A program made the position numbers and the translations under genes. From an uncultured Planctomycetales bacterium (lineage in GTDB: Bacteria > Omnitrophota > Gorgyraeia > Zapsychrales > JANLHA01): a DNA stretch of 64,000 nucleotides. The notes under the pieces were generated by a model. It was not told the DNA's origin, did no database searches, and saw only the letters and a program-made list of their open reading frames with translations. Every line of letters starts with the position of its first letter. Position 1 is the stretch's first letter. Where the stretch lies: contig CAYJXI010000005.1 of the NCBI GenBank assembly GCA_964374105.1, forward strand, positions 12,440-76,439, written 5' to 3'. Positions 3,001 through 30,454 of the stretch are shown piece after piece.

Positions 3001-6000
3001 TCCGCGTATATCCAAAAGAATGTCTTTGGCAAGGTCGAAAGACTAAACCTTAAGCAGCAGGACCAGATTATCGCGTTAGGGATCGCATTGCACCGGGCTG
3101 TCTTAGGGATGGTTAAAAAAGACGGCGGGAACGAAAATGTTATCACTTTTCGGGAATTGATCCGCTTCAACGAAAATTTCAGCCGATTTTATCTGAGAGA
3201 TACCGGCCTTAAAAATGTCTTGGAACTATTTATTTTGACGGCAACGAATATCTACGGACGAGTGCTCGACACCAGTGACAAACGCAAAGAATTCGCCAAA
3301 ATCCTTATCAAGCTCTTGGAAGGCCACCGGGAATTGTTAGGCCAGGCCCAGGTGGAGTCCGAGGGGTTAAGAGGCAATCTTGAGGACGTTGTTAAGAATA
3401 TTATGCTATTTGGAGATTATGAACATCTGGGGCGGCAACCGCAGGCCGAAGAAATTGTCCCTGAGATCAACATCCGGGCGCTGGTGGAAAGGGCTAGGCA
3501 GGTGGGCAGTGCCTCGCTTTTGATTGTCGATGATGACAATGCGGTCGTGGTCAATAGTGTCTTGACTCAGATGAGCCAGGAAGAAGATACGGTGATGATT
3601 CGTCTTTCGATGAACGGCTTCAGCCGCCGCCAGGAACTCTTTGGGATGTACATACCTAAGACGAGGCTGTCGGAAACGGAAATTAACTCCCAGTTAACCG
3701 CGGTCACTGAAGAGGAGGTTAAGAAGGCCCTAAAGGATATCCTTGGTTTAAAGGACGAGGAGATGGAGGCCGCCTTGAACGAGTGGCAGAAGTCTTTGAT
3801 TTTGAACACCAATCCTTTACTGCGTGAGGCGGTTGCCTTGTATCTGAAAAAGGGCGGTCAATGGCGGGAGTTTATGGAGTGGCAGGACGGGCTTTTAGTG
3901 AAACTGCGCGACCTGGCGAAAAAAAATCCTAACAAGAAATTTCTGTTAGCGATGGAGAATATCTCAGCGGCGCCGGATGGCGTGCGGCTTTTGTTAAACC
4001 CGGTCCTTTGGGAGAGGATGGTAGAGATCCCGGAAAAAGGAAGGCGGATTGAGCTGCCGGAGAATATGAATTTTATCTTGACGATGCACAAGGACACGGT
4101 GATTAAAGATGAGTCATTTATGAACCGGCCGCTGGTGCAGTATGTGCCTGATATGACCCAAGACGATTGGCAGAAGTATCTGACCATTAAGACAGGGCTG
4201 CCGGCCGCGGAGGCAGAGAATTTGTTGACGATTTTCAATCAGCTGGGAACGGTGAGGTTTAAAGAGGCGGTGCGGTTTAACGGTCATGATCTTTTGGAGA
4301 TCGCTCAACGTATCAAAGGCGTTAGCGAGGAAAAAACCGTCAAGGTCCCCGAATTCTTGCTGAAGGAGATTTATGATTATTTACTGTTACGTCTTCGTAC
4401 TCCGGAAGACAGGGAAAAATTGACTGCGGTCGTTTCGACATTCCCCGGATTTGAGATTCAGCCGCCGGTGATTGAAGTGGACCGGGAAAGGGCGGTCGTT
4501 AACTTCGATGGAGTTCAAGTCAAGGTGAGTAAGGCCTTTATCGACTATGCCCGTCGCAATCCTCAAAAAGATTTTGTGGCCTTGATGAATGACCGTTATC
4601 GTTACATTGTGACGGAAATGGAAATGCGGCTTCTCTCGCAGCTGGCCCGGGCCACGAAAGGCTACGGCAATAAGGCGATTCAACTGGAGGGCCCTTCGGG
4701 GGAAGGAAAAACAGAGATTGGCAGGGTCTGGGCGCGTCTGCTTGGGTTTAACTTACGCGAACGCACAATTAATCAGGATACGAACTTAAGCGAATTCCGC
4801 GGCCAGATACGCCCCACCAAAGACGGCCGGTATGAGTTATATGAACCCCAATATTTAACACAGATAGAAGAAGCACGGAATATCTTTTTGTTCAACGAAA
4901 TCAATACGAATGAATCCGGTAGTTTGTATTACTGGCTGTTTCCGGAGATGACGGGCCGGGCAGAGAAAGCCTTGGGTGAATTTGCCCAAACCTCGGATGA
5001 GTCAATTGTCAAAACAGCGCGGATTAATCAAAACAATCTGTGGCTTTTCACGGTCAATCCTGAGGCCAATTATTATGGACGAGGCATGACCCCGCCGATT
5101 GTTTCCTCTCATGTCACTGTCTTCACTATGGCCCAGGATTTAAATAACCTCCCGCAGGTCGTGGAGGGCCACCTTAGACGTAACGGACTCGCCAAACGAT
5201 TAAAGCCGGAATCCTTAAAATACGTCGTCAAGCGCCTAGCGGCTCTGCATTATCATTTAAAGCAGTTCAAAGCGGAAAAACGCCTATCTTCTCCGCAGGA
5301 TATCACTCCCCGGGATATCATCAGTGTGACGGATAAGTTTAAACAGTATTTAAGCGAAAAGATGGATCCCAAGCAGGCCTTGCTCCGGGCGGTCGAAGAG
5401 GTTTATGTTTATACCTGGCAGAAAGGCGCCGATGTTCAATTATCCCGTCTCGAGGTCAAAAAATTTTTTGGCAGAACGGAACAGACAACAGCGCTGGAGG
5501 CTCTGACAGCGGCCCTTAAACAGAAAGAACGTCCGGTGATGGTCTTTGGGAATGCTACCAATGATCCTCAGCAAATCAGAGAATATTTAAAGAAAGCAGA
5601 GCCAGAGGCCATTATTAAAGATGTGCCTTTAAGTTATTTCCACCGTCAGCGGCATTTCCTCGGGGGACTCATGCCCCTGGCCCGAGAGAAAAAGGAAGGT
5701 CTTGAGGCCAAGATCGATGCCTTAAGGCCGCCGCTAGAGGAGAAGTTAGGTCTTCTGCCAAGCCTTATTCAGGAGGCAAGGTTGAATCCCAATCGGACAG
5801 TCTTTGTCCTTCTTTATGAATATTCCCATTTAAACCCACAGGTCGCTCCTCTGTTAAACGAATTTTTCCAGACCGGCCGCATTGACGGCATAGAAGAGAT
5901 GGTGACGCTGGCTATCAGCGAAGAGCTTATCAACCTGCTTGCGGCTAAGGGCAAGTGGCAGCAGTTCCGGGAAGAGTTTCCTGGTCTGTTGCCGGAAGAG

Positions 6001-9000
6001 ATGGAGTCCTTAACAGAGGAACAAAAATTATCCTTTGCCCGATGGTTTTACAGCCAGGCCCCAAAGAATCTGCGTTTTGTTGCAACCAGTTCTAGTGTGG
6101 AAGAAATCAAGTTAAGCCCGGCCGAGATCAACCGTTTTCTCACCGTGAATATCTCTGAAGAATTCAATGCCCTTTGGCTTGAACGCTATCTGCGCCAGCA
6201 TATTTCAACGAAATTGAAACCTTATACGGCGTTGATTGGGAAAATTGTCCGCGAGACGTTTGATTTGTATGTTCAGCAAGCCAGAAATTGGGAGTATGAG
6301 CATAACCGGTTAGGCCGGCGCGATATCGCTGCCTTCTGGGAGCGCCTGGATCAAGAGAGCAGACTGGATGAAGATAAAATTAAGAAATTGGCCTTCTATA
6401 CGTTGGCTATGGGCTTAAGGACAAAATACCGCGAGGAATGGGAAGAGAAAATCGATTACCAGGAAGATTTGGCGGCCGCCAGAGACCAAGAAAGAATAAG
6501 TTATGCCCAGCGGAAGGATGGCATTTATTTGATTGTGGATGGCCTTGAGTTTAAAACCCGGTTGACCAAGATTCCAGAGGAAAAATTTTTAGCCCCTACC
6601 AAGGCCTATGTGCGGCAGTTGGCCTCGATTCTCTTAGGGTTAGAAAGCGGACGGCCTATCATTACGGAAGGGTATCCCGGCGGCGGCAAGACCTCCGGTA
6701 TAGAAGATGCGGCCAAGCGGATCGGGTTAAAATTTTATAAAGATTTAATGTATGAGGATATCGATTTAGGGGAATTTTTAGGCCGGTTGTCCAAAGAGGG
6801 CCAAGAATTTTTGGTCACGGCCTTAAAGCACGATGCGAACGGCCACCGGGTCGTAAAATTTTTGCGCGCTTATGCCGAAGGCGGCATTCACCTTTTGGAT
6901 GAAGGGGCGGTGGGAACAAATTCTCAGGAAGTGATTACCTTTTTAAGTGTGTTGTCGCAACTGCCTGCTATTGATTTAGGTGTTTTTCACCCCGGGTTAG
7001 CAGGCGAGGTCATCAAGAGACACAGGGATTTTCATCTTGCTATTGCCCAGAACCCGGCGCATTCGACCGCTGGGCGGGAAAAGATTTTATACAGTACCGA
7101 TACCTTGGCCCATAAAATCTGGACCGATAACGCCTTAGACCAAGAGGATGCCTTAGCGATTATTAATTATCATCTCGATAAGCCGGACGCTGTTCTTCAA
7201 TCGTTGAAAGAAGAGATGGCCACGATCCACCGGGAATTCACGGATGTCCATCCCCGCAGTGATGAGATAAGCCCGCGGCAGTTGATTATGATTGCTCGTA
7301 TCCTGAATCAGGCCCTGGAGGAAGGCCAGGACCTTGACCGTGCGGCCTTTGAAGGGGTTATGGCCGCCTATTTAACCGGTGTGTCCAAACAAGAATTTGA
7401 ACAAATATGGACAAAGGTGTCAGAAATCACGCAGGGCCGATTCGACCGGTATCTTGAGGAATGGAAAGAACCGATTGATGTGAAGATTAATGACGGATAT
7501 GTCCAGTTTAACGGGATGCGTCTGCCGAAATCTGTACCCAAGGGCAATATCCAACAAAATGACGTATTTATTATTGAGGATCTGCCTTTCGAGAGCCGGA
7601 GTCTGCGGGCCATGGCTTTGGGAGTCTTAATGAACATGCCGGTGGCGCTGTTAGAGGAAGAAGGGGCTGATGCCTTTGATCTTATCAAAAAGTTTGCGTA
7701 TTTAACAGGGTATGAACTGGTGCCTCTGTGGAGCCATCCGCAGATGACCAAGATGCATTTGCTGACAAGTTTACTGCCTAAGTTTGAGGCTCTGATGGAC
7801 CGTTATGGGATTAAACGGGAAGAGGCAGGTCAGGAATTTTTGATGAGTTTAGGGTTTATTGCGCGTTACCTTATGGAAGAAAAGGAATATAACGCCTTTA
7901 ATGAGGAAGAACGCCAGGCCCAAGCACAGAAACTTTTATTCTTCCATTTGATGGACGCGGTTCCGGAACGGCAGCGGGTGATGCTCAATGAGCTCTTAAC
8001 AACGAGCAAGATTCAACTCTTAAACGAAAAGGGAGAGGCGGTCACGTATGTCCTGCCGGAATGGGTCCACATTGTTGTCTCTTCCTCGTTAGAGCATAAA
8101 TTTTCTTCTGCCTTTATTAACCGATTTTTGCCTATTCAGGTCAATACCCTGGAGAATCTGGACGAATTGATCCATGTTATCCAGAACCGTTGGCCCCTCG
8201 TGCGCGAGGAAGAGGTGAGTTGGCTTAAGAAGGTGGTAGGCTTGGTAGTCCGTTATGAAAAACAAGAGGCCTTTGGTCTGCATTACGGATTTAGCCCGCA
8301 GGACATTTATAAACTCGCAGCGCTGATTCATCTGGAGAAACAGCGCGATATGGAAAACAATCGGTTTAATACCAACCCCTTATATTATTTCCTTAAGGCC
8401 ATAACTATTGTTTATGGTCTGGGGTTAGCCGAGGATGATGCGAAGATTTTTGAGGAAAAAATTGTGCAGGAAGGCCTCTTGGGGCCGTTATTGAACACGA
8501 CCGATAAAGATAAACTTGAGGACATCTATGCTCGTCTGCTGGCGCAGATCAAAAAGGATTTGGTGACCTTAGATCGGGAGGTTTATGAAATCCGCATCGA
8601 TGTTTCGCAGCTGGGCGAAGGCGAAGGACTTAAGGTCGCCAATGGCATGAGTATTAAGAGGAATGGCCAGGGGTATATCATCGAGACAGCCGGGGCTAAT
8701 ATTTATCAGGTGAGCGATCAAAATTTGAATGACTGGACTGATCTGACCAAAGGAAACGGGGAGCTCTTGGTCAAACAAGAGGGGGATCATCTCGTCTTTC
8801 AATTGAAGTTAATCAAGAGTATCGGTGGAGTGATTCTGCCCAGAGACGAATTTAACAGGATGAGGAGTCTGCCGGAGAACGAGGTGCCGACGAAAGAATT
8901 TATCCGTTTTACTCCGGAGATGCGTATGTTAGGGGCAGCTGTCCTGCGGGGATGGCAGCCGGTCGAGGATCATTTAGGGCGCCTCCGTCCTCCACGGGTA

Positions 9001-12000
9001 TTGCTCATGAACGGCAGAACCGGAACAGCTAAGACAACATTCATCCGCAATCTTTCGCGCGTCTGGGGCGTGCCGCTTTATATCCTGAATGCCTATGAGG
9101 ATATGAAGGTCTCGGATATGACGGTGGGTTTAAAGTTGGAGGAAGGGAAATTCCAGGTTGGGATCAAGGAATTCTTGGCGAGAGTTGGGAAGATTAACGG
9201 CCAGAGAATCAGTGTCCCTTCCAAAACCACTTCTAACCGCAACATCCTGCTCATTGACGAAGCCAATGCGGCACCGGATATTCTGTATTCTCTAGCGCCC
9301 CTTTTACGCGGCGAGAAAAAGTTTACGGTGGAATATGCGGGCGAGAGTTTTGAGGTGGAGGTTGACGATGAGGTTTTAATCGCCTTGACATTTAATCCGG
9401 CTGAAACTTATGCCGGCAGAGGCGCCTTTGACCGTGAACTGATTGCCCATGCCGAGAAATTGTGGGCCCCGGATCCTTTAAGATATCCGGACTTGACGCT
9501 GATTGACATTTTAAGGGAGTACCATCGCCGAGGAATTACGAAAGCGCAGCAGGAGTTGAAAGAGCAGTTGCCAACCGTAGGTTTGACGATGCACGAGGCC
9601 TTTGCGAAGGTTTCGCCTTATCAAGAGACAGTCAAGAATCTGGAACATCCTGCTCTGGAAGAGCTGGGGAAGGTTGGGGAAGAGGGTCCAGAGAAAACAC
9701 AGGCAACTGAGCCACCGGCAGTTGCCCCGACACTTGAGCCGGCTAGTGTGGCTACACCCCAGGTTGCGGAGATTAGCTATGATGTGAACATCATTAGGAA
9801 GAATGCCCAAGAGTTTACGAAGGATCAAGGGCATCTTGATTTTGCCAGGGACATTCTGGCTGGATTTTTGTTAGCCTTAGGTGACGGCGAGCAGGGGTTA
9901 AATGATGTTGTCCTCAAGGCCGCCAGCATATTAGGGCCGGATGTGGTTGAAATCCTGCAGGACATCGTCAGCCTGTACGGTCGGGAGATTGTTAAAGAAA
10001 GCGAACTGAAAGGGAAGTTTCTTAAATTAAGAAGGGTCTTCATGGCGCATGATGTAGCCCTTTTTATGAAACGGCCGAAAAAGAGGGCTTTGATCATTTT
10101 ATCAACGGAAAAGGTCAAGCGGCGCTTAGCAATGAGCGATGAAAATTTAACTCGGCTGGGAGAAGATCCGGCTAAGTATGCTGATCTTAAGTCTCAGGCC
10201 GCAGTGGTGGGAGGCGAGGAGTATTCACGGCCGGGCGTAAGCGGATTTTTTGAGGGGGAATTTGCCTTTGCCTTTGAGAAGGCAGTTCGCCAGGAGCTGG
10301 CCGCAGCCGGCGTAGAGACTCTTAAAAATGTTACTTTCGAGGAATTTGTGGAATGGGTGGCCTTCCATGAACTTGGGCATGTCATGGATAATTTAAGATT
10401 AAGGGTAAGAGGCTATAAAATCCCGCGGTTGATCCGCTGGACGAAATTAGCGCATGATGTGAATGCCTCTGTCATTGGGTTGTGGCTGTCCGAGAACCTG
10501 GAACTCAATTCAATTCTTTTTCCGTTGATTTTTTCTCCCAAGGCCAAAGAGTATGCCCTTTATGAATTGGTCAATACCATTAGGAAGAATAAGGATAAGA
10601 AAAGTTATTATGTGCAGGCGGCTAAGGGAATTCTTAACGGAATTCTCCTCAAACAAAAAGGTGAGAAAGAACCTTTGATTACGGATGAATTAGAGGAGGA
10701 CCGCATTGACGCAGTAAAGAAGCTAATTGAAGGCCTAACGTCCGAGGAACTCAACAAAATTGCGGTTGAGCTTTATCAACAGCCAAAAGAATATTTGGCC
10801 ACGGCCAAGGCCGGGGCGTATAAGGGCAAGGTCTTGATTAGCGATGGGGGGACAAGCCTTGAGGATATTAACCATGGCGTTGACGGCACCCCGGATGTTG
10901 ATATGGAGTATGAGGATGGGAAAGCGGAAATGAAAATCAAAACCCCCAAAGGCAAAGGCCCGAAGGTCATTGAAGAACCCAAAGGCGGGAAACGTAAACC
11001 CGATGCGGGAGGGAAGAAAGGGCCGAAGGTCAAACCTGAAGATAGTAAAAAGGACGAAAAAGATGAAGAGGAAGAGACTCCTGCAGAAGAAACAGAGGAA
11101 AAGGAACCGGATATTTCGGGAGTTAAGGGAGATATCATTAAGCTCGCCCAGTTATCTCCGGGATTGATTTCGCGGTTTTTGGAAATATTTGCCGGTGTCC
11201 CCAAGATCATCAAGGTCTATGCCGAAAGCGGGGATGAAATCGATATTGAGCGGATTATTACAGGTGACCTGGAACCGTTTTTCCGGCAGAAGATCATTCA
11301 GGCCCTGGCGTCTTTAAGCAGTGGTGTGACTGTGGATATCAGCGGCAGCACGCTTAGTAGGGGTCTGCATGAGGCCTTTGTGCAGATGTCCAAATACTAT
11401 GCCTCCCTATTTTATTATTCGGCTGTGCGTAATAAAGAGGTGGAATTTTCCATCAGCGCCGTCGGCGATTCTTTTCACCCCCTACTGGATTTCCGCGATT
11501 CCCGAAACAAAATGGCGGTGGAAGAGGGATTAACCAAGATATCGACAACAAACGACTATGGGGGAATAAATACCAAAGAGGTACTGGAAGGGCTTAAGAA
11601 GAAATATGCCGACCAGAAGCACAAAAAATATAAGATGGAGATGGTCTTTACAGACGGAGAGGAGACGTCAGGATTGAGTTTTGAGGAATTGCGGCAGATG
11701 GCTGATAGTTTAGAAAAAGAACTGGGGATCGATATTGTTTTTATCGGCCTTAATACGGATGATGTAGAGAATTACTCAAAATTCATTAATCTAAAAAACG
11801 AGGTTTCGGCCGAGCAGTTGGTGGATTTGATTATCCGTATTTCTCTGCTTAAAGTCGAGCGGGGGATGCTGCCCCACGGAAATTTGGCAGAACGGTTTGG
11901 GATGGAAGATAAAGCGGCCAAAGAGGATATTGGAGAAGAGGAATTTTTGCGTCCTGAGTCTGGACTTAAGAAAATCCCTAGCAAAGATTCCGCAATATTA

Positions 12001-12255
12001 ACAAAAGTGTCGGATAATGACCAACCAACACAGCCGCCCGGTGGTATTGATCTTAATCCGATGCATCTTAACTTGGAGATTAAACGGGATTCCCAGGGTG
12101 TGCCTTTGCCCGTGCCTTTACAGCCCATTGAACAGATGAAGATAGAAGGATTTGTTCCGATTATTATTAATATCACCCCCATAACTCGTCTACCCTTTTT
12201 CTTAGGGGCAAAGGAGGAAAATGGGGATCCATCTTTTGATTTAAGCCAGCGCTAG
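1..12255 (+). CDS. Giant multidomain protein A, 5'-truncated by the window (at least 4084 aa). It has helical repeats, three AAA+ (AAA_5/midasin-like) modules, an HExxH motif and a C-terminal vWA/MIDAS domain. It is a paralog of the gene at 13096..27921.
   Basis: Uninterrupted 12.2-kb frame-1 ORF running from the window edge. Walker A GPSGEGKT (4690-4713) with Walker-B-like IFLFNEIN (4882-4905). Walker A GYPGGGKTS (6670-6696) with LLDEG (6892-6906). Walker A NGRTGTAKTT (9001-9039) with ILLIDEANA (9244-9270). HELGH at 10366-10380. vWA MIDAS D-I-S-G-S at 11335-11349 and FTDGEET at 11647-11667. K/E/P-rich linker around 10935-11115. Conserved C-terminal tail at 12034-12183. Collinear with giant B at roughly 50-60% identity from about nt 2860 onward, estimated by eye. 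Confidence 0.85.
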   Translation: MLFILFFGTSNGQSKVIEGYDPITAMRLLYFYFKNYMLRNDKDIQQFGNFVERISSGEFIKERWTALSQLIESAEKGEMDKEFLNLGLLETIASSVGDDGVQGAYRELRRVATYVKTDKVASGIVTAEFLKEYSNEAKGSTSWAYMAIGTLFRAGIDKRYPAEEVRIFLDKLVNKLGDSWIGYQSLDSLVRSILYAKEIDSAVLDLPFLSSLLEFDNPGLVLQAYYHLAKAGVVNKENFEKIKNLFDIINDGIHRFNRSPDQIYQPLKKFIQTVKDKDLNRNVLNMDVLAAVFRNMPGNEDYLEREFTALEHLAETVKAEGLNEVILEPRVLLGSWTGAGTSFAWAAGHLRNLARAVKRGEVDSFVLTSDLLPFMAENLQYDIAYGALLLQAMAEAGFVTSENMKEVKEFITVLGQGIKKFRDDLASSGKLDESGVIPNMLGRLIELFQGYAQKQIDSFAVDFNFLKEFLNPERGRLNDAPANLLALNDFAEVLKRQGIDPKTIQYPIVEGTQLTKWGIQKFILGMGHAKIAPSLDIMSVYLDKGGINAENIKDLLDLGADLGGIVTGSYGLSPEALLEIKYLLKAAGPQVIDIPYLNSLLNTLWHNHYDVKASIPFFTMMGNHGLLRQDNSNGISSWLMGIFHLIKVNSGQQHFSVALEDVLAMLKLMLEHGIVKEDNLKILKEIIKEIPPDNAVHYYKGIEDLVNLGVVKPSDLEELKVLIHNMNKIKELSAPARRADQSYHYVIDLINKVKQENLSPAVLDIKLLNTLLVSLLKNRGDLLINSDLAFSELERLALTIKRERLTPEVFLNRDLLIALVEKANSISVAFHRYQEILIASGHEMSEMILGQILDGINIFYAHGRMSIEEYLNKLPTFRAAWPPSDFIRHSPLYAAVELLENKGSLIEEVEYGTDILLYEMVLRGRVYLLLLPPVLAEQLKGNTAREMLKDINPSNYEEELHLAALFVTLRQDIPLTAGLSYEEFLRIVKGDTTSKYTPIISAYIQKNVFGKVERLNLKQQDQIIALGIALHRAVLGMVKKDGGNENVITFRELIRFNENFSRFYLRDTGLKNVLELFILTATNIYGRVLDTSDKRKEFAKILIKLLEGHRELLGQAQVESEGLRGNLEDVVKNIMLFGDYEHLGRQPQAEEIVPEINIRALVERARQVGSASLLIVDDDNAVVVNSVLTQMSQEEDTVMIRLSMNGFSRRQELFGMYIPKTRLSETEINSQLTAVTEEEVKKALKDILGLKDEEMEAALNEWQKSLILNTNPLLREAVALYLKKGGQWREFMEWQDGLLVKLRDLAKKNPNKKFLLAMENISAAPDGVRLLLNPVLWERMVEIPEKGRRIELPENMNFILTMHKDTVIKDESFMNRPLVQYVPDMTQDDWQKYLTIKTGLPAAEAENLLTIFNQLGTVRFKEAVRFNGHDLLEIAQRIKGVSEEKTVKVPEFLLKEIYDYLLLRLRTPEDREKLTAVVSTFPGFEIQPPVIEVDRERAVVNFDGVQVKVSKAFIDYARRNPQKDFVALMNDRYRYIVTEMEMRLLSQLARATKGYGNKAIQLEGPSGEGKTEIGRVWARLLGFNLRERTINQDTNLSEFRGQIRPTKDGRYELYEPQYLTQIEEARNIFLFNEINTNESGSLYYWLFPEMTGRAEKALGEFAQTSDESIVKTARINQNNLWLFTVNPEANYYGRGMTPPIVSSHVTVFTMAQDLNNLPQVVEGHLRRNGLAKRLKPESLKYVVKRLAALHYHLKQFKAEKRLSSPQDITPRDIISVTDKFKQYLSEKMDPKQALLRAVEEVYVYTWQKGADVQLSRLEVKKFFGRTEQTTALEALTAALKQKERPVMVFGNATNDPQQIREYLKKAEPEAIIKDVPLSYFHRQRHFLGGLMPLAREKKEGLEAKIDALRPPLEEKLGLLPSLIQEARLNPNRTVFVLLYEYSHLNPQVAPLLNEFFQTGRIDGIEEMVTLAISEELINLLAAKGKWQQFREEFPGLLPEEMESLTEEQKLSFARWFYSQAPKNLRFVATSSSVEEIKLSPAEINRFLTVNISEEFNALWLERYLRQHISTKLKPYTALIGKIVRETFDLYVQQARNWEYEHNRLGRRDIAAFWERLDQESRLDEDKIKKLAFYTLAMGLRTKYREEWEEKIDYQEDLAAARDQERISYAQRKDGIYLIVDGLEFKTRLTKIPEEKFLAPTKAYVRQLASILLGLESGRPIITEGYPGGGKTSGIEDAAKRIGLKFYKDLMYEDIDLGEFLGRLSKEGQEFLVTALKHDANGHRVVKFLRAYAEGGIHLLDEGAVGTNSQEVITFLSVLSQLPAIDLGVFHPGLAGEVIKRHRDFHLAIAQNPAHSTAGREKILYSTDTLAHKIWTDNALDQEDALAIINYHLDKPDAVLQSLKEEMATIHREFTDVHPRSDEISPRQLIMIARILNQALEEGQDLDRAAFEGVMAAYLTGVSKQEFEQIWTKVSEITQGRFDRYLEEWKEPIDVKINDGYVQFNGMRLPKSVPKGNIQQNDVFIIEDLPFESRSLRAMALGVLMNMPVALLEEEGADAFDLIKKFAYLTGYELVPLWSHPQMTKMHLLTSLLPKFEALMDRYGIKREEAGQEFLMSLGFIARYLMEEKEYNAFNEEERQAQAQKLLFFHLMDAVPERQRVMLNELLTTSKIQLLNEKGEAVTYVLPEWVHIVVSSSLEHKFSSAFINRFLPIQVNTLENLDELIHVIQNRWPLVREEEVSWLKKVVGLVVRYEKQEAFGLHYGFSPQDIYKLAALIHLEKQRDMENNRFNTNPLYYFLKAITIVYGLGLAEDDAKIFEEKIVQEGLLGPLLNTTDKDKLEDIYARLLAQIKKDLVTLDREVYEIRIDVSQLGEGEGLKVANGMSIKRNGQGYIIETAGANIYQVSDQNLNDWTDLTKGNGELLVKQEGDHLVFQLKLIKSIGGVILPRDEFNRMRSLPENEVPTKEFIRFTPEMRMLGAAVLRGWQPVEDHLGRLRPPRVLLMNGRTGTAKTTFIRNLSRVWGVPLYILNAYEDMKVSDMTVGLKLEEGKFQVGIKEFLARVGKINGQRISVPSKTTSNRNILLIDEANAAPDILYSLAPLLRGEKKFTVEYAGESFEVEVDDEVLIALTFNPAETYAGRGAFDRELIAHAEKLWAPDPLRYPDLTLIDILREYHRRGITKAQQELKEQLPTVGLTMHEAFAKVSPYQETVKNLEHPALEELGKVGEEGPEKTQATEPPAVAPTLEPASVATPQVAEISYDVNIIRKNAQEFTKDQGHLDFARDILAGFLLALGDGEQGLNDVVLKAASILGPDVVEILQDIVSLYGREIVKESELKGKFLKLRRVFMAHDVALFMKRPKKRALIILSTEKVKRRLAMSDENLTRLGEDPAKYADLKSQAAVVGGEEYSRPGVSGFFEGEFAFAFEKAVRQELAAAGVETLKNVTFEEFVEWVAFHELGHVMDNLRLRVRGYKIPRLIRWTKLAHDVNASVIGLWLSENLELNSILFPLIFSPKAKEYALYELVNTIRKNKDKKSYYVQAAKGILNGILLKQKGEKEPLITDELEEDRIDAVKKLIEGLTSEELNKIAVELYQQPKEYLATAKAGAYKGKVLISDGGTSLEDINHGVDGTPDVDMEYEDGKAEMKIKTPKGKGPKVIEEPKGGKRKPDAGGKKGPKVKPEDSKKDEKDEEEETPAEETEEKEPDISGVKGDIIKLAQLSPGLISRFLEIFAGVPKIIKVYAESGDEIDIERIITGDLEPFFRQKIIQALASLSSGVTVDISGSTLSRGLHEAFVQMSKYYASLFYYSAVRNKEVEFSISAVGDSFHPLLDFRDSRNKMAVEEGLTKISTTNDYGGINTKEVLEGLKKKYADQKHKKYKMEMVFTDGEETSGLSFEELRQMADSLEKELGIDIVFIGLNTDDVENYSKFINLKNEVSAEQLVDLIIRISLLKVERGMLPHGNLAERFGMEDKAAKEDIGEEEFLRPESGLKKIPSKDSAILTKVSDNDQPTQPPGGIDLNPMHLNLEIKRDSQGVPLPVPLQPIEQMKIEGFVPIIINITPITRLPFFLGAKEENGDPSFDLSQR

Positions 12256-12316: not shown

Positions 12317-12844
12317 CTAATTTTTTAATAATTCTGTGTGTGTCCTTAAGAAATCTCTCACCTTTTCATTGAAGGGAACAAATACTTGATAGAGCTTTAG
12401 ATCCCCTGGCGCTTGAGGTTTGAGGATGCGGGCGACTCGACTTTTGAATCGAAAGCTTGTGGGGATGAGAGTTTCTTCCTCTTTTTGGAAGCCAATAGTG
12501 ACATTGGTTTCTGTATTAAAAGGAATAAATTTGGGGATACTACAGGAAAGACCGATTAAACTGATATCATTAGTTTGGCAGTTAAAATTTTCTTCAGATG
12601 TTTTAATCTGAACGGGGAATTTAAAATTGAATCGGCGATGACGTCTCTTTTCCGATAAGATGTTATCGGGATTTTTTAAACTCAAACGAAACTGTTTAAA
12701 CCCTTCCCCGTAGCGTTTGATCCAGTCTAAGGTGGCGGTGGCAAATCCAATTTCATATCCTATTTTTTCGCTTTCAATCCATTTGTGTTTACGGATTTCT
12801 AAAATAGCCAGCTCATCTTTGAGAAATGAATACGGATTCTTCAT
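12317..12844 (-). CDS. PilZ-domain protein (putative c-di-GMP receptor) with an uncharacterised N-terminal roughly 65-aa domain
   Basis: 175-aa ORF on the minus strand with a strong RBS (AAGGAGGG) 5-8 nt upstream of the ATG at 12844. It contains the RxxxR motif (RRHRR) followed about 21 residues later by D-I-S-L-I-G, matching the DxSxxG PilZ c-di-GMP-binding signature. The N-terminal segment has a W-x-ESEK-x-G...DW pattern that I do not recognise. Confidence 0.6.
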   Translation of the reverse strand: MKNPYSFLKDELAILEIRKHKWIESEKIGYEIGFATATLDWIKRYGEGFKQFRLSLKNPDNILSEKRRHRRFNFKFPVQIKTSEENFNCQTNDISLIGLSCSIPKFIPFNTETNVTIGFQKEEETLIPTSFRFKSRVARILKPQAPGDLKLYQVFVPFNEKVRDFLRTHTELLKN

Positions 12845-13095
12845 TCAACCCTCCTTCTTTTTAAAGGTTAAACGGATTATATCAGATCGCTTTTTCAAAT
12901 CAAGCGATATTTCAACTTTTTATCGACGGAGAGGATGGGTTTTAAAGAAGTCGAAGGAAATTCATAAAAAGAAATTGGGATATGGCAGACTCACCAGTCT
13001 GATAACCAAATTTGTTATTTATAATAATATATTTTATACTTATTCTGACTCATCTTTTAAATTATCTCAAAATTATTTTAAAGCTCTCATTCAAT

Positions 13096-16000
13096 ATGCG
13101 GATTTCAAAGCCTTTCCAACGATTTGTAGCTTTGTGGGTCTTGATTTCTTTTCTGGGGACCTCAAGCTATGCCCAAACCATATTAAGCCTTCCTGCCCCC
13201 GGCACAATGGTGACCGTAAGTGAAGGGTTTATGCCCCCCACCTTAAGGGGAGTCACCATCCATCCGGATAACCCATTGAGCTTCGACTTTATTTTGGATA
13301 TGGGAGATTCCCAGCTTAAAACGCAAGATCTGGAAAGGGAATCATCAAAACTGATCAAATATTTCCTTGCCTCGTTAACGATCCCAGAAAATGAACTTTG
13401 GGTCAATCTTTCTCCTTACGAAAAAGAGAAAATCATCTCGGATCAATTTGGTTTGACCGAGATGGGAAGGGATTTATTGGCGCAGGATTATATCTTGAAG
13501 CAATTGACGGCCTCACTCATCTATCCGGAAAATGAGCTGGGAAAGAAATTCTGGGATCGGGTTTATCAAAAGGCCTATGAGTTGTATGGGACGACCCAGA
13601 TTCCAGTCAATACCTTCAATAAAGTTTGGATTGTCCCCGAACGTGCGGTTGTCTATGAACAGGGGAATACTGCCTTTGTGGTAGACACGCATCTTAAAGT
13701 CATGTTGGAAGGGGATTACTTGGCCCTCAGTGAAAATTTTAAGAGAAGAAATTTTACGGAAGATCAATTGTTAGACAAAGAGGTCAAAGAGCTCGATCAA
13801 ATGAGCTCAAGTATCGTCAAAGAGGTGATCTTGCCTGAGATTGAAAGAGAGGTTAATGAAGGCGAGCATTTTTCCCAATTGCGGCAGATTTATCATTCGT
13901 TAATCCTTGCCGTTTGGTATAAGCAAAATTTGAAGGAGAGTTTATTAAGCAAGGTTTATGTCAATCAGGGAAAGGTGGATGGGGTGGATATCGAAGATAA
14001 GCAGAGCAAGGAGAAGATTTATGAACGGTACCTCGAGGCCTTTCAAAAGGGGGTCTATAACTATATCAAAGAAGATTACGATGCTCATACAGAAAGTTTG
14101 ATCCCCCGAAAGTATTTTAGCGGCGGGGTTCAGTTCAGCCTGGAAAAGGTCAAAGATCAGGCCATTTTGACCACGGTCAAAAAGAAAGAACAGCTGCCCC
14201 TTGAGTCCCGAAAACAATTGTTAAGACACATCGAACGGGCGCGTCAAGGGCGATTTAATCTGATCGCCGCAACCTTAGCGGAAACAACCGGGGATGCCCA
14301 AGCCTTCTTAAGGAATCACCTCGCAAGGCTTAAGACCGAAGATTCGGATCCTCTTTCCCAAGAGTCACGTTTAAATCAAGGATTATCTGAAATCACAACC
14401 GGATTGATCGGCAAACAGTATGAGGTGACTGATGTCCGCGTTGAAAAAGAACGTCTTATCCTCACCACCAAGGATAAAAAGACCATCTCTTTGAATGTCA
14501 GGGAAAAGAAATGGATAACTCAGGATGAGCTGGTTGCCAGATTCAAAACCGCCTTTACCGGCAATGGAAATTTGAAACTCATCACGGATATTGTCAAATT
14601 GTTGCCGGAAAAAATCCAGGTCTTGACCTTTGAAAATCTAGAAGGAGACCTCCTGGGGCTGGCCTCACGAAAATTAGGACTATTGGCCCTGCATCAAAAT
14701 TTGGCCAATAATCCTACCGCCCTTTTTCATGAAATCGGGGAGTTCTTGGGACAGAGTGAGGGAGAGGCACAAGCTCCTTTGAATCTGGAATTTAAGATCA
14801 CCAAAACTCAAGCCAAAACTTTGGGGTTTCTTTATGTCCGTGATCAAAAGGGGAGGGCCATGAGAAAGCTTGCCGTTGAACAACCAGAAGTCGTGGATCT
14901 TTTTCAAAAGGGGCCTAAGAATCATCATTACTTATTGAGGGGCATGCAAAGGATTCTCTTACCACAAGAGGATAAACAATTGTCCATCGAGATTAAAAAG
15001 GCCTTGCATGAAGAGGAGCTGAAAAAGGAGACCAGGGCTGTATTTAAGCGAATCGAGGAAGAGGCAACAGGCAACGTCTCTCTCCAAGATAAATTGACAA
15101 ACGATCAAGCCCAAATCAAAGAGATCCTTGACCTTTTAACTTTGGCTTATCTTGTTAGTCAAAGGGCGGTTGAGAGGGACTCTTTGAAGGCGATTTTTAT
15201 GGGAATCCTTCAATCCGATTCTAGCGAATTTAGGAATTCAATTTATGAATCATTGAAGAATCTTGGGCGATCAGCCATCTTAGAAGAGCTGAATCCACAC
15301 CTTATCCGTTATGATATTCTTGCCCGCCTGATTTCAAAAGGAGGAGAGCAAAGTCCTCTTTTGATCAACATCACCCGATCCTTTGCGCAAGCGAGAATTC
15401 TGACGGGAGACAACCTCGATAAATTTGAATTTCTTATGCTCAACGTTATCCCATCGAATTCTAAAAGGGGAGAGATCTATCAGTCTTTGTTAAAGCTCTC
15501 TGAGCTAGCTCTTGAAGAACTCGATTCCTATGTGATTTTAGGAATTCTGAATTTAGACTTCATAAGACAAATTTTAGATGAGTTAAAACAAGATACACCG
15601 AAGGCGCTTAAGATATTAATTGGATTAACCCAATTAGGAGTCATCACCCAAGAAGCTAAAAGGGATAAACTGAAAACCTTAAAGGCCCTCTTCAGCGGCC
15701 GTGATACAGAAAGGTATCGAAAACAGAAAATTTATGATAGCCTCCTTCATCTTACAGAGACATTTGCGGAAAAAGGGTTAAATCCGCAAATTCTTGATTT
15801 AGAAATCATCCGAGCAGATTTTCTGGCGATATCTAAAAATTCTGATGTCGCCATGGACACTTTTCTTGCCTTGACTGAGATAGGTTTCATTGAACCAAAG
15901 ACACTTAAGAGAATTAGTGGCCTTCTATCCACCCTTGGCATGGGTGATTATAATTCAAAAGACAATTATGACTCTTTGCTGAAATTAGTTAAAGCCGTTA

Positions 16001-19000
16001 AAACAGAAGACTTACCTTCCCAGTTGTTGGATTTTGATTTGTTGAGTACAGTTATCAGTTCTTCTAGGCTAGGTTCCCATCGAGTTCTTGACATGTTATT
16101 AGAAATGGGAAGGGCGGTTAAGACCAATGGGGTAAACCCTGTCATTGTCGATTTAACTCTGCTTAAGGCAGTATTGAATCATTCTCCTTGGCATTCTCAT
16201 GATGTCTATAAAGAAATCTTAAGTTTGGCGGAAACTGTTAAATCTCATAATTTACCTGTTGGAACCCTTTCCAAAGATACCTTAATGAGTCTCCTTGAAT
16301 ATACAAAGATAAATGCAGGAAAAGGAATTCAAATTTTGAAGGCACTTGCTATAGGCGGGGCCATCAAATATGGCGAACTTGATCGCGTAAGAGGTCTTTT
16401 TGTCATTTTTACCGGACAAGATTCGGAATTTTATAATTCTACTTTGCAACACATAGAGGAATCAATCCGGCTCCAATTGGACCCAGTTGTCTTGGACTTT
16501 GATTTGATGAAAAATATCTTTATGCAGAAAATAGCTCCTATTGATTCCAGTTTTAGGGCTTTAAGGGAATTAGCCGAGGCGGTCAAAACAAAGGGGCTGG
16601 ATCCCTCCTTATTGGATGTGAGGTTGCTTGGGGTCGTCACCAAAAAAGAACGGCCCGGATTAGCAGAAATGATTAACGGCTTAAAGACATTGGGAGAATA
16701 TGTCAACAAATACCACTTAGCGGATTTAAAGCACAATATTCTCGATGTCGAACTGCTTAAAACAATCGCAGAGGAAGCGGATGAGAATATTTATAAAAGT
16801 CTGGCCATGTTAGCCAGAACCGTCAAAGAGAAACACTTGGATGAAATAGCGTTGGATCGGGAACTTCTCATCGACATCATTCGCCATTCCAAAGGTTTTG
16901 CGACGGCCAAGCAATTGGATCTCCTGAGCAGTATAGCCAAAGCGGGGCTTCTTTATCCGGATAACCTAGAAAGATTTAAGGATTTTATCAGACAAATTAA
17001 CGAGTTGAGAGAATCCTTTAGAGACGATTTTTCGCAGATTTTTGAAGCCATCGCTGGTTTATTTGATTCCGCTCAAAAAGGGGAGATCAATGAATTCATC
17101 ATTGATTTTGATTTAATTCTTGGGATTTTAGAAAGATCACCAAAACCGATTTCTATTCTTAATTCCCTTAAGGAGATCGGCAAGGCGGTTAAGGTCAAAG
17201 GAGTGAACTTGACCGTGAAAGGCCTTGAGGGGCCGTCAGCGCAAGAACAGGAATATAATTTGGCAACAAAACTGATCCAACAATCGACACATACGGCCAC
17301 TATTCACAAATCTTTGGATCTTTTAACTGAATTGATTGAAAGCGGGTTTGTTCAGCGTGACATCAAACAGGCGGCTCGGTTTATTGCGTTGGTTAATGAG
17401 GATTTGTTTGATGTTTTGATAGAACTCCTTCGAAGTTTTCGAAAGAAAAATGTCAATACCTCGGTCTACGATCCGGATTTTATTTCCCAAGTGATTTCCA
17501 TGACTAAAGACGCAAATGTCTATGGGATTGAAGCCTTAAAGGAGTTGGCAGAAGCGGATATGTTGATCGAGGGTCGGAAAGAAGAAATTATGACATTTTT
17601 CCAAGATATTACTAACATTGTTAAAGAAGAGTTTAGAGCAGATGCCTTTCAGGTTTTAAGTCACTTTATCAAATCTTCAGTGATTAAGTTCGGTCGTTTT
17701 AAAGAGATCATTGATTTCTATAACAAAATTAATAAGTTAAATAATCAGCCTTGGCCTTATCAGGCAATTTTGGCTTTGGATAAAGTTGGTCGAGTAAGAT
17801 TCGAGAATTTAAAAGATTTAGAGACTTTGCTGTTGATCATTGATCAGAAAACCTCTTCTTATGATTATTTAAATTCTATCATTTCCTCAACACAATATGT
17901 CAAAGATAACGAATTGGCCACCGTCATCCTTGAACCTAAATTATTGACAGAAATCCTTGCCAAAGAAATTTCCCATCCTGAATTTAAAAAGATTCTCGAT
18001 CAATTGATCGAATTGGCCAAAGTGATTAAAAGGAAAGATATTCCCATTCAATTGGCTATCCATTTGGATTCCTTTCGATATATTTTTGGGAATTTTGCTC
18101 CAAACTATAGCCTAGAAATTTTTAAATGGTATACGGACTTTCTCAAAGAAAATAGTGAATCGCTTAACTCTGTCCTCATAGAAGGTATTTGGGATGGGAT
18201 GAAACTCGTTAAGACAATCAAGGAAGAACAAGGTGGTGAGGGTCAAAAGGAAGTCTCCCAATTTTTAAATTGGTTTAGTTCGCATTTTGTAAAGGATAAA
18301 GAATTGTTTCCTTTGCATTTTAGTTTCAAGACATTTGCCGAGGAAGGCAAATTTACAATTGACCGGTTTTCGGTTGAGAACAATCTGTATTTACTCCCTA
18401 CCGAGATCCGCCAAAAGATTAAAGAAAAAGGATTTGAAGAGATCTTAAAAGAGGTAAATCCCTCCAATTATCTTGAGGAAGTTTATGCCGCCTCACTCTA
18501 TGTGGCTTTACGTCGAGATGTACAGGTTGCCATCGGTTTGACCTTTAAGGAATTCTTGGAGATCTTAAACGGAAAGGCCAATTCTCCCTTTAGTTCCCTC
18601 GTGACTTCCTTGATACAAAGAAAGGTCTTTAAAATGGAATTGGAGCTCACCCCCAGCCAGCAAGAACAAATCATTACTTTAAGTATTGCCTTGCATAAGG
18701 CCATGTTAGATCTCTTCCATGAATCGGCAACAAGCGGAAGCGTCACCTTCCGTGAGCTTATTCGATTCAACGTCAGTTTCAGTAAATTTTATTTGCAACA
18801 GATTGGGTTAGAGAATGTGATCGAGTACTTTATTTTAACCGCCTATAATATCTATGGCCGAATTATTGATACCCAAGAGAAAAAAGAAAAGTTTACAAAG
18901 GCCATGATCGGACTTTTATATTCAGATAAGTTTAAGCTTTTGCTGGGACAGGCGCAAATTGAATCCGAGGGAATCAGGGGGAAAATCTCCGAAATTATCC

Positions 19001-22000
19001 AGAATATCGTGGATTATGCGGATTATACGGATTTGAAACGCTTACCCCAGGAAGAGGAAATCCCCTTAAAAGTCACCATCAAGGCCGTGATTGAGCGGTC
19101 ATTACAGACAGACAGTGCTCCCCTCCTAATTGTTGATGATGACAATTCCATCCTAGTCGAGGAGGTTTTAGAAGAGTTGAGCCAACAAAAAGATACTGTC
19201 ATGATCCGCATCACGATGAATGCCTTCAGCCGGCGGCAGGAGTTGTTTGGCATGTATCTGCCTAAAAAGCTTTTGTTGGAAAGGCAAGTCAATGCGCTTG
19301 TTGAGACGGCCCCCCAGAGCGATATTCAAGCTGCCCTCAAAGAGATTTTGGGGTTAAAAGAAGATGAGGTCGACTCTTATTTTAAGGAATGGCAGAACAC
19401 CTTGAGTTTAAGGGAAGACCATTTTCTGCGTCAGGCCATAGCCACCTATTTGAATAATAAAGAAGATTGGCGTCAATTTATGGAATGGAAAAACGGGGTT
19501 TTGGTCAGGTTAAAGGAGAAGGCCAAGAAAGACAAAAAGAAAAAGTATCTCATCAATCTCGATAACATCTCCGCCGCCCCGGATAGTGTGCGGCTCCTTT
19601 TGAATCCTGTTTTGTGGGAGCGAATGGTGGAAGTTCCTGAAAAAGGAATGCTTTTAGAATTACCCTCTAATTTGAATTTCATCATGACCATGCATAAGGA
19701 TACAAAAATCATCGACGACGCATTTATGAACCGTCCCTTAGTCCAACACGTTGCCCCTTTGAGTCAGACAGATTATATTCGTTATTTGACAAAAAGCGTC
19801 GGCCTTCAAAAACAAGTGGCCGAACATCTATTGGGAATATTCTCTGAGATTAAAAGACAAGGATTTTTCGAAGACCCGAGACTCAATTTTCATGATCTTA
19901 TCGAAATCGCCAAACGTGCGACACGGGTTTCCTTAGAAAATGATTTGAAACAGGAAGATGTCCTTTTTAAAGAAGCCTTTGATTACCTGTTCTTAAGGAT
20001 GAGGAATGAAAAGGATCGAGACAATTTGAAAAAAATCTTGTTCAGTGACAAAGAGCAAGGTCTTTATCATCCTCTTAAGATCACCGTTGATCGAGAGAAT
20101 GGTGAGATCAACTTTGATGGGGTGAGGCTTAAAGCCTCACCAGCATTCTTGGGTCATTTAAAAGAAACCCCCGAAGCTGATTTTATTAAATTGATGAATG
20201 ATCATTATGGATATATCGTGACGGAATTAGAGATGAGTATTCTTTCTCAGTTGGCGCGTTCCATGAAATATGGTAACAGGGTCGTTCAGTTGGAAGGGCC
20301 TTCCGGGGAAGGGAAAACGGAAGTCGGCCACGTCTTTTCTAAGCTCATTGCTCTTAATCTGGTTGAGCGCACAATCAATCAAGAGACAAATCTGTCAGCA
20401 TTCCGCGGGATCATTCGGCCCACCAAAGCAGGGCGTTATGAATTGTATGAGCCGGTGTATTTAGAACACATTGAAGAGGGCGGGAATTTATTTTTATTGA
20501 ATGAGATCAATACCAATCAATCGGGGGGATTGTATTATTGGCTGTACCCTGAGATCACTCAGCGTGATCACAAAACATTAAGTGAATTCGCTGACATAAG
20601 CGATGAGTCAATCGTCAAAAGGGCCCGGATCGACCAAAATAACCTTTGGCTGTTTACCGTGAATCCGTATGGGTTTTTGGGGCGCGGCATCACTCCTCCC
20701 ATTATCCCCTCCCAAGTCAGTATCTTTTATATGGCCCAGAATCCCGATTCCCTTCCCGAAGTCATCCGCGGTTATTTTGAACGAAACGGTTTACGTGAAG
20801 TTCTTTCCGGTGATTTGTTCAAAGAATATGTGGATAAATTGACATCCATCCATAAGGCCTTAAGAGAGCTTAAATTCACCTATCGATTGCGTTCTCCCCA
20901 AGACATTACCCCACGGGAACTGATCAGTGTCACAACAAAATTTCGCAACTTCATGGTAGAGGAAAAATTAACGCCTAAGGGAGCCTTCCAACGCGCCGTT
21001 GAGGAAACTTATACTTATGTTTGGAAGAATTTAGAGGATATAAAACTGGTGCGTTCGCTGGTCAATGAGATCAATGGGCATGCGGGAAATACGTATCAGG
21101 ATAGAGCGTTTTTGAATAGGGTTGTTGTCGAAGCAACTCGGCCAGTGATGATCTTTTTAACGGCCGCCAATGATCTTACCCAATTGGAAGGATCCATCCA
21201 GGAAAAAGATCCCAAGGCCCAGCTTTTTCATATTCCGTTAAGCTATTTTCACCGCAACCGGCAGTTTGTAGGAGGATTGATTCCTAAGGGGGAAAAAAAG
21301 GTTTTGAGCGGCCGATGGAAAGAAGTCCATCAGTTGACAGCGCAGTTAGAAGAGGGGTTAGGGATCATCCCGGAATTGATCAAAGAGGCGAGGTTTAATC
21401 CCGAAAGAAACATTTATGGCATTTTATATAATTATACGCATCTTAATCCTCAAGTGGCTCCCTTATTGAACGAATTTTTCCAGAAAGGATACTTAGAGGG
21501 AATCGAGGAGCTTATCACCTCAAGGGTCAGTGAGGAATTGTTAAGGCAACTGAAATCACAACCTCAAACCATTTGGCAACAACTCCGAGGAGACTTCGCT
21601 GGCAGTCTTCCCGGGGAGATTGAGCAATTGTCAGATGAAGAAAAACTTTCCTTTGCGCGGTGGTTTTATTCAAAAGCACCCCGGAATTTACGATTCATCG
21701 CAACAGGCTCGAGTGTAGAAGAAACCAGTTTAAGTCCGGCCGAATTGAATCGCTTCTTGGCGGTTAATATTTCTGCAGAAATGGACCTTGAATGGTTAGA
21801 GAATTATTTGGGAAATAAAATAAGTCAAAATGGCTTGGATGCTTATGAATCACAGATCAGTCAAGTGGTGATTCCCGCCTACCAATTCTATCAGCAACAA
21901 ATGGCCCTTTATGAATACGACCACAATCGTTTGGGGAGAAGTGATGTTGATGCTTTTATTGAAACCTTGAAGGAATATCCCAGCCTCAATCCTTCTCTTA

Positions 22001-29301: not shown

Positions 29302-30006
29302 ATGGTTTCGTTTGATCAATTTTTCCCTTCTGGTGTCCACGCCTTTGTCAGTGATCGAACGGTTGATTTTAAGTCCCATCCCAAGACAGAAGGATTCACC
29401 TCCCAACAAAAAAGTTATTTACAGGCGCATTTCCCTTATTCCTATCAAAGGCTCGTGAATATCCATCAGGTCCACGGCGATTTTGTTTGGGCGATAGAAA
29501 AAGAGGATTTAGATCAGCTGAATGGTGCCCAAGAGGCCGATGGGGTTATCACCCATGTAGTGGATGTCTTAATCGCGGTGCGAACGGCCGATTGTCTTTC
29601 GATTTTTATTTATGATCCCAAGAGAAAATGCCTAGGTTTGGTCCACGCCGGTTGGCGGGGGACACATAAGCAAATTATTATGAAAGCCCTGCAGGCGATG
29701 AAAGAACATTGGGGGTGTTCCTTGGGAGATTTGCTGATTGCCTTTGGCCCTTGTATCCGTAAGTGTTGTTATCAGGTGGGAGGTGAATTCAAAGACTATT
29801 TCCCGCAAGATATTGAAAAGCATGCGGGAAAATATTATCTCGATTTACTCCTCGTTAATAAAAAACAATTGATCCAGCAAGGAGTGAAATCTAGCGCAAT
29901 TTATGATTGTCAAATTTGCACCTGTTGCGACAAAAGATTTTTCTCTTTCCGTCGAGAGAAGGAGGCGGCTGGCCGGCAGATTTCTCTGATGATCCTTAAA
30001 ACTTAG
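29302..30006 (+). CDS. pgeF: Peptidoglycan editing factor PgeF / YfiH family (DUF152, laccase-domain purine nucleoside phosphorylase)
   Basis: 234-aa protein with HQVHG, DG..T.......RTADC and HAGWRG motifs typical of the YfiH/PgeF family. Its start overlaps the rmuC stop (TAGATG). Confidence 0.75.
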   Translation: MVSFDQFFPSGVHAFVSDRTVDFKSHPKTEGFTSQQKSYLQAHFPYSYQRLVNIHQVHGDFVWAIEKEDLDQLNGAQEADGVITHVVDVLIAVRTADCLSIFIYDPKRKCLGLVHAGWRGTHKQIIMKALQAMKEHWGCSLGDLLIAFGPCIRKCCYQVGGEFKDYFPQDIEKHAGKYYLDLLLVNKKQLIQQGVKSSAIYDCQICTCCDKRFFSFRREKEAAGRQISLMILKT

Positions 30007-30446: not shown

Positions 30447-30454
30447 TCCCATTA

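Follow-up and report, generated by a model that had tools for sequence, protein, structure and literature searches.

The PilZ domains that bind cyclic diguanylate (c-di-GMP) are defined by two motifs, RxxxR and [D/N]hSxxG (Galperin & Chou, bioRxiv 10.1101/814665). MapZ (PA4608) of Pseudomonas aeruginosa is a stand-alone PilZ adaptor that binds CheR1 when loaded with c-di-GMP, and in YcgR, PlzD (VCA0042) and MotI (DgrA) the c-di-GMP site is the RxxxR linker between an N-terminal domain and the PilZ barrel. In the phylum Omnitrophota, a secretion locus with a Rotamase_2 peptidyl-prolyl isomerase (PPIase) lies in front of most giant genes, and GGDEF domains occur inside some of the giants, for which an interaction with pilZ products was proposed (West-Roberts et al, 2023, bioRxiv 10.1101/2023.11.21.568195). 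Here, we analyse a small PilZ gene that lies between two giant genes in 64 kb of DNA from an uncultured bacterium of this phylum (contig CAYJXI010000005.1 of assembly GCA_964374105.1), the whole of which we call the window. Its product joins a canonical PilZ barrel to a highly conserved N-terminal helical hairpin, and our best explanation is that it probably serves as a cytoplasmic stand-alone c-di-GMP receptor or adaptor, with a partner that is more likely to be some conserved component of the cell than the giants encoded beside it.

The gene, the parts of its product and its immediate surroundings are as follows (window coordinates).

12317-12844, minus strand: coding sequence of the PilZ gene, N-terminal helical module plus PilZ domain, 175 amino acids (aa) (list of open reading frames, ORFs; 115 full-length homologues aligned)
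12341-12652, minus strand: PilZ beta-barrel and C-terminal helix, residues 65-168 (PF07238, 39.8 bits; Foldseek matches in the PDB)
12551-12568, minus strand: [D/N]hSxxG motif, D93-I-S-L-I-G98, in the second strand of the barrel (translation; aligns with DVSLHG of MapZ)
12632-12646, minus strand: RxxxR motif, R67-R-H-R-R71, in an interdomain linker modelled at low confidence (translation; register shared with ERRRFHR of MapZ/PA4608)
12677-12823, minus strand: helical hairpin, residues 8-56 (LKDELAILEIRKHKWIESEKIGYEIGFATATLDWIKRYG...), a 'HKW-SE-G-DW' module of DUF4032 type (AlphaFold2, conservation, transitive DUF4032 matches)
12850-12854, minus strand: Shine-Dalgarno sequence GGAGG, 5 nt 5' of the PilZ ATG (sequence; a GGAG-type element stands at the equivalent place in homologous loci)
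12845-13095: spacer separating the start codons of the PilZ gene and giant B, 251 bp at 29% GC (window ~41% GC)
1-12255, plus strand: giant A, truncated by the end of the window (AAA_5, VWA, weak midasin-lid match), convergent with the PilZ gene
13096-27921, plus strand: giant B, 4941 aa (AAA_5 and a weak midasin-lid match), divergent from the PilZ gene

An earlier note on this DNA had described a 175-aa PilZ gene as the only gene between the giants, and the ORF is indeed real and the only one of that size in the ORF list at this place, with a gap of 61 nt to giant A. The strong ribosome-binding site, the layout divergent from giant B and the AT-rich spacer of about 250 bp reported in that note are likewise found at the positions listed. 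The protein is identical to a 175-aa PilZ protein (P0001) recorded in other assemblies.

Residues 65-150 match the Pfam PilZ profile PF07238 with E=6e-10 and a score of 39.8 bits, against a cut-off of 22.5. The motifs on which the note had based its identification, RRHRR at residues 67-71 and DISLIG at residues 93-98, are both maintained among the 115 homologues: E65, R67 and R71 are invariant (115/115), 113/115 have R70 and 104/115 have D or N at position 93, position 94 is hydrophobic and G98 is found in 110/115. The AlphaFold2 model built on the family alignment reaches a mean predicted local distance difference test (pLDDT) score of 84, with two helices (residues 11-28 and 34-56) at pLDDT 93-97, the RxxxR linker at low confidence, predicted barrel strands over residues 77-157 and a predicted C-terminal helix at residues 160-168. 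When this model was compared with the PDB using Foldseek, the top ~40 matches were all PilZ proteins, with probabilities reaching 1.00, and included MotI/DgrA, PlzD, BcsA, Alg44, YcgR, MapZ, MrkH and PlzA. As judged from the alignment, selection acts on the binding residues throughout the family. Since the motif conservation fits the definition of Galperin & Chou, the profile, both motifs and the predicted fold together confirm that the 175-aa protein is a canonical PilZ-class protein, in which c-di-GMP would be bound at R67xxxR71 and D93xSxxG98.

The closest likeness is to MapZ, which shares with the present protein its small size, cytoplasmic character, canonical PilZ barrel and fold, as well as the ligand-dependent adaptor logic that we propose below. 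MapZ is also the best solved-structure match of the profile made from the 115 homologues; the score of this match is weak (E about 0.8), the two motifs line up in register, and MapZ is devoid of the N-terminal helical module. The top fold matches of the barrel are to the YcgR, PlzD and MotI group (5vx6 at E 1.9e-5, plus 2rde and 5y6f). The N-terminal domains of these proteins are PilZ-like beta-barrels (PilZN, YcgR_2), whereas here a ~45-aa two-helix hairpin takes this place, and no flagellar or motility genes lie near the PilZ gene in the window. We rejected an assignment to the YcgR-like class, as neither PF07317 nor PF12945 is matched in Pfam and the N-terminal domain is predicted as two helices. 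The pilZ genes reported from Omnitrophota (bioRxiv 10.1101/2023.11.21.568195), which we could compare by description only, come from the same phylum, are small and directly follow a giant gene, and have a Rotamase_2 PPIase nearby. The giants of that report differ in being far larger, of Archaeovorin or Dockerin type, and in being followed by carbohydrate-uptake genes, and most orthologues in the present family have no giant neighbour.

No other part of the protein is as constrained as the hairpin: over the 115 homologues, the top-residue frequency averages 0.80 there and 0.37 in the barrel. The hairpin follows the pattern E-I-x-K-H-K-W-x-E-S-E-K-x-G-x-D/E-I-G-F...A-x-D-W. A metagenome scan with the family alignment gave >560 matches; among the best 80 of these, 5 are full-length family members and 75 match the N-terminal module only, most of them covering residues ~16-53 alone; the ORFs concerned mostly measure 75-110 aa. 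Residues 1-64, used as query in an exhaustive phmmer search, retrieved 589 cluster representatives, most of 54-130 aa, among which are some with two or three tandem copies, one HPr fusion and some DUF4032 proteins. Directly scored against DUF4032 (PF13224), the whole protein reaches 12.9 bits and its N-terminus alone 15.1 bits, below the cut-off of 23.8, and the match is confined to profile positions ~131-161 of 163. We assign the module to the DUF4032 type because relatives found by phmmer pass the cut-off, such as P0141, which matches the window module at E=8e-12, with 37 bits, and P0152 with 70 bits. On the 163-position profile, the window module and the stand-alone proteins related to it cover positions ~125-161, and the window protein differs from DUF4032 proper in having no counterpart of the first ~120 positions. 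Homology of the hairpin to a widespread stand-alone or tandem DUF4032-type module is thus supported transitively, through sequence relatives.

The description of the N-terminal ~65 aa as uncharacterised, given in the earlier note, needs to be qualified accordingly: the module is recognisable as DUF4032-type, and DUF4032 itself is without an assigned function. A literature search for DUF4032 or PF13224 found no mention of either in the papers covered, and a fusion of the hairpin to PilZ is absent from the PilZ survey of Galperin & Chou (bioRxiv 10.1101/814665). Hairpin plus PilZ is therefore, as far as these sources go, a previously undescribed domain architecture of a known receptor class. Among the relatives of the module, P0141, P0146, P0156, P0246 and P0152 include proteins with the HKW module in two or three tandem copies; in P0246 it is fused to an HPr domain of the phosphotransferase system, and P0152 is a DUF4032 protein whose N-terminus bears a ParB-like 'ILDGHHRV' motif. 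Note that spurious ORFs in high-GC contigs, together with the close relationship of the loci, confound a clustering of neighbours around the stand-alone modules.

Full-length members of the family number at least 115, with lengths of about 165-180 aa; all those with a named source come from Omnitrophota. Fifteen family loci, including the window, could be read on both flanks. At 11 of them there is no large gene within 10 kb, and nine of these 11 (L001, L003, L005, L006, L066, L068, L145, L147 and L148) are syntenic and encode no product >900 aa within that distance. On one side, the shared block runs through HisG, a SurA-like PPIase, AhpC/redoxin, CutA1, Cu-oxidase_4, RmuC and usually DinB to the PilZ gene, which stands on the opposite strand; beyond it follow an HhH-GPD (EndoIII-like) glycosylase, a cupin, an ABC-F protein, a pseudouridine synthase and a SpoU methylase. 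The distant members L070 and L150 lie in other contexts, likewise without large genes. In the window, part of this block is retained after giant B, in the order that adjoins the PilZ orthologues of L001, L003, L005, L006, L145, L147, L148 and L149 (assignments by Pfam).

28039-33844: retained part of the block, as a whole
28039-29301: RmuC
29302-30006: Cu-oxidase_4 (YfiH-like)
30123-30446: CutA1
30618-31190: AhpC/redoxin
31241-32737, minus strand: SurA-like PPIase
32954-33844: HisG, followed by TPR and GHMP kinase genes

Giant B stands where the relatives hold DinB and giant A where they hold HhH-GPD, and the remaining window genes are housekeeping genes. Because the housekeeping block is kept right after giant B, the giants look like lineage-specific arrivals flanking a resident PilZ gene. 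Gene order across the family further indicates that the opposite-strand orientation of the PilZ gene is ancestral to the housekeeping block and no feature of the giants, and that this is a standard Omnitrophota gene, usually found among housekeeping genes. Nearly all window genes lie on the plus strand, with a positive GC skew throughout; the exceptions are the PilZ and SurA-like genes. A variant of the block is seen in L018, where the syntenic slot (1548-1775, minus strand) holds a 76-aa gene with the N-terminal module and a KRRxxRF stretch and without the PilZ barrel, and where a 1862-aa head/tail protein lies between Cu-oxidase_4 and SurA; this contig contains runs of N, and an assembly artefact is possible.

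The PilZ gene also appears to be transcribed on its own account, from the following elements in the spacer.

12876-12903, minus strand: sigma-70-type promoter of the PilZ gene, TTGATT (12903-12898), 16 nt, TG, TATAAT (12881-12876); 10/12 match with an extended -10
12918-12929, minus strand: CCGTCGATAAAA box 5' of the -35, a candidate regulatory site; its GTCGA core is at a similar position in 8/13 family loci

This is the best promoter-like site of the spacer, and it faces away from giant B. The arrangement TTGnnn-N14-16-TGnTATAAT, 25-75 nt 5' of the start, recurs in 12 of the 13 family loci scanned together and, in addition, in L151, where the PilZ gene lies only 104 nt 3' of a large gene. 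From these elements, we read the PilZ gene as monocistronic, served by a conserved promoter of its own that is close to consensus and by a strong ribosome-binding site; it looks like an autonomous, well-expressed unit. The box, of the form C(C/T)GTCGA(G/C/T)AA, lies 24-48 nt 5' of the -35 in the window and in L001, L003, L005, L006, L065, L066 and L147, and is a candidate site for a regulator.

The control region that the earlier note had seen as shared with giant B is made of elements that do exist and that are no better than chance. Both palindromes are present, ATCGCTT-9-AAGCGAT at 12886-12908 and CAGACT-4-AGTCTG at 12986-13001, and as many inverted repeats occur in 28-33% of dinucleotide-preserving shuffles of the spacer; we rejected them as operators on this ground. 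The first of them, moreover, lies across the -35 and the spacer of the PilZ promoter, and the upstream regions of the homologues do not conserve it. TTGTTA-17-TATACT (13012-13040) is a 9/12 match and one of 8 promoter-like sites versus 2.6 expected, and we did not retain it as evidence of shared control, being a weak match in DNA of 26-34% GC. The sole site resembling an intrinsic terminator (12650-12671, plus strand) was also set aside: it lies inside the PilZ coding sequence, on the wrong strand, at chance level.

Upstream of the PilZ orthologues of five genomes, we observed a divergent gene for a conserved hydrophobic mini-protein of 49-55 aa (...GIKIFLLVWIIFVPIAITNRLEKIIKLLEDKK), located from the sequence as follows.

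L001, 9564-9731, minus strand: mini-protein
L005, 9575-9724, minus strand: mini-protein
L006, 9652-9801, minus strand: mini-protein
L066, ~9572-9715, minus strand: mini-protein
L067, ~9717-9860, minus strand: mini-protein

In the window, the start of giant B takes its place and no such mini-protein is encoded. The contigs that carry the orthologue P0019 (L007, L008 and L009, from three independent assemblies) all terminate upstream of the PilZ gene, 30-146 nt from its start, a recurrent break that could reflect a hidden repetitive or large gene.

Giants A and B are paralogous, with 44.8% identity over 4150 aa, and both contain AAA_5 modules of dynein/midasin type; VWA was detected in giant A only, and Pfam finds no GGDEF or EAL domain in either. 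Giant A measures 4924 aa in another assembly (L010), and the start of giant B at 13096 is backed by homologues that align from residue 1-2. The ~350-aa head and ~60-aa tail of giant B recur in 52 Omnitrophota loci, in proteins of about 900 to >3,700 aa whose middle is not shared; the head/tail family loci considered here are L013-L064, L067, L149 and L151. Both giants belong to this modular head-cargo-tail family, which has >50 Omnitrophota relatives with unrelated middles. The head starts MRISKPFQRF... and is hydrophobic and, by appearance, signal-peptide-like; the tail reads PPGGIDLNP...LEIKRD...PLQPIEQMKI-GFVPIIINITPI and looks like a sorting or anchoring signal, with no match to a named one. 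Giant A (positions 1-12000) has a GC content of 0.45-0.49, somewhat above the roughly 0.37-0.44 of giant B and all that follows it (13000-64000). When metagenomes were scanned with the C-terminal 449 aa of giant A, 383 pattern matches came up, none of which was confirmed, and word-index protein searches, probably swamped by low-complexity and AAA words, returned 2 matches for the giant A C-terminus and 1 for the AAA_5 region and did not recover the giants themselves. As orthologues of the giant core could not be collected, a linkage test centred on the giants rests on the shared head domain only.

In the explanation that we prefer, a cytoplasmic c-di-GMP receptor or adaptor, a flexible linker with the RxxxR motif would join the two-helix hairpin to the canonical PilZ barrel. 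Because YcgR, PlzD and MotI bind c-di-GMP at their RxxxR linker, we propose by analogy a domain closure, in which c-di-GMP at the interdomain junction would order the linker and re-orient the hairpin against the barrel. This movement may expose or hide the conserved basic and aromatic surface of the hairpin (R18-K19-H20-K21-W22 and D40-W41), and the change in exposure would switch the binding of its partner. A conserved cellular partner is likelier than the giants for two reasons: constraint is strongest in the hairpin, and the family is maintained at loci where no large gene is close by. That the gene adjoins the giants would then come mainly from where large genes landed in the region.

One rival builds on the c-di-GMP-dependent control of the giants that the earlier note had suggested from the gene's placement: the PilZ protein would be a dedicated post-translational c-di-GMP switch of the neighbouring giants or of the head/tail family, acting on ATPase activity, export or assembly; we regard it as a minority possibility. 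Giants adjoin the gene on both sides here, and in L151 two head/tail large genes (1615 and 1449 aa) lie directly 5' of the PilZ orthologue on the same strand, with a gene of >=3219 aa 1.7 kb on its 3' side; in both L149 and L067, a head-bearing large gene adjoins the SurA-like PPIase gene, at a distance of about 6 kb from the PilZ orthologue. The pilZ gene and the Rotamase_2 PPIase of West-Roberts et al (2023, bioRxiv 10.1101/2023.11.21.568195) are two landmarks of the present syntenic block, and the GGDEF domains reported in some giants would also suit such a switch. Against it, the 11 orthologue loci free of large genes within 10 kb, nine of them sharing one housekeeping synteny, are not what the placement argument would lead one to expect, and a PilZ gene immediately downstream of a giant gene is limited, among the 15 loci, to the window (after giant A) and L151. 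Read from the giant side, the neighbourhood check suggested in the note gives the same picture: none of the 52 Omnitrophota giant-head loci has a full-length PilZ-family member in the flanks fetched, a motif scan beside them found no other canonical PilZ, and two of them (L018 and L044) carry module-only genes. Moreover, the PilZ gene retains its own promoter even directly 3' of a large gene (L151), giants A and B are without GGDEF or EAL domains, their AAA+/VWA core is almost without detectable homologues (in a limited word-index search) compared with a phylum-wide PilZ family, and the pilZ genes of the preprint may belong to another family. The position of the gene here is thus weak evidence for control of the giants, a control that is unproven and not required by the data. 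The more specific version, in which the protein would be a c-di-GMP switch for the large and giant secreted proteins of head-cargo-tail type, gating export, assembly or AAA+ activity through the hairpin, seems unlikely to us; if true, it would account for the repeated occurrence of giant genes between pilZ and a SurA-like PPIase in Omnitrophota.

Two other explanations start from the protein itself and from its usual neighbours. The barrel could be a scaffold only, as in degenerate or ligand-independent adaptors such as Xanthomonas PilZ or the tPilZ protein XCC6012, with a hairpin that works without c-di-GMP. The N-terminal module is indeed far more conserved than the barrel, stands alone in hundreds of proteins and occupies the syntenic slot of L018 as a 76-aa module-only gene, and about half of the family has N at position 95. 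We nevertheless find this explanation quite improbable, given that RxxxR is invariant in 115/115 homologues, that G98, D/N93 and the hydrophobic residue 94 are kept, that PilZ domains that do not bind typically lose the motifs (Galperin & Chou, bioRxiv 10.1101/814665) and that the window protein has a fully canonical DISLIG. A regulator tied to the DNA-repair neighbours (DinB divergent, HhH-GPD convergent, RmuC nearby), for instance one that connects c-di-GMP to damage tolerance, is very improbable in our view: the order DinB, PilZ, HhH-GPD is found in 7 or more genomes, where the PilZ protein shares 41-52% identity with that of the window and a common divergent spacer bears the conserved GTCGA box, but the whole ~20-kb block is syntenic, so that adjacency is unspecific, no DinB lies beside the PilZ gene in L005 and L148, the giants replace both neighbours here with the PilZ gene kept, and the distant members L150 and L070 are in other contexts. 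The preferred reading, a c-di-GMP receptor or adaptor with a conserved cellular partner, has points against it as well. A head/tail large gene lies near the PilZ orthologue at 4 of the 15 loci, window included, against a rough expectation of about 5-10%, in a small sample of loci that are not phylogenetically independent and with direct adjacency in two cases only; and small pilZ homologues are reported to come after most Omnitrophota giant genes (West-Roberts et al, 2023, bioRxiv 10.1101/2023.11.21.568195). Position 95 is S in 60/115 and N in 53/115 homologues, a substitution that may affect c-di-GMP binding. No GGDEF, EAL or HD-GYP gene is found by Pfam in the 64-kb window, so that c-di-GMP metabolism in this genome is putative, and the domain closure is an analogy with a putative partner for the module. 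Since the 4 of 15 loci exceed the expectation and the preprint reports pilZ after giants, the PilZ family may have a functional tie to large surface proteins.

Elsewhere in the window, genes for a McsA-like protein (UVR motif), a McsB-like ATP:guanido phosphotransferase and a ClpC-type AAA+ protein stand in a row at 58265-62282 (plus strand); the McsA/McsB/ClpC protein-arginine-kinase quality-control cassette is best known from Firmicutes. A single ORF of 442 aa at 48314-49642 (plus strand) combines LpxC with a FabA/FabZ-like dehydratase domain and lies within a lipid A cluster of LpxD, LpxC-FabZ, LpxA and LpxI that comes after BamA and Skp. Pfam gives no match at E<=1e-5 for two ORFs, at 52720-53574 (plus strand, 284 aa) and 62537-63559 (plus strand, 340 aa).

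The assignment of the PilZ domain is in itself routine, PilZ receptors being well known. The fusion to PilZ offers a first functional handle on the hairpin module, and it points to a role in signalling output or partner binding. The analysis of genomic context sharpens the published suggestion of a link between pilZ genes and giants, with a family gene resident in a housekeeping block around which large genes come and go, so that their co-location needs a statistical test before it is read functionally. If the link to the giants is true, the PilZ protein would offer a rare regulatory entry into the giant proteins of an uncultivated, possibly predatory phylum.

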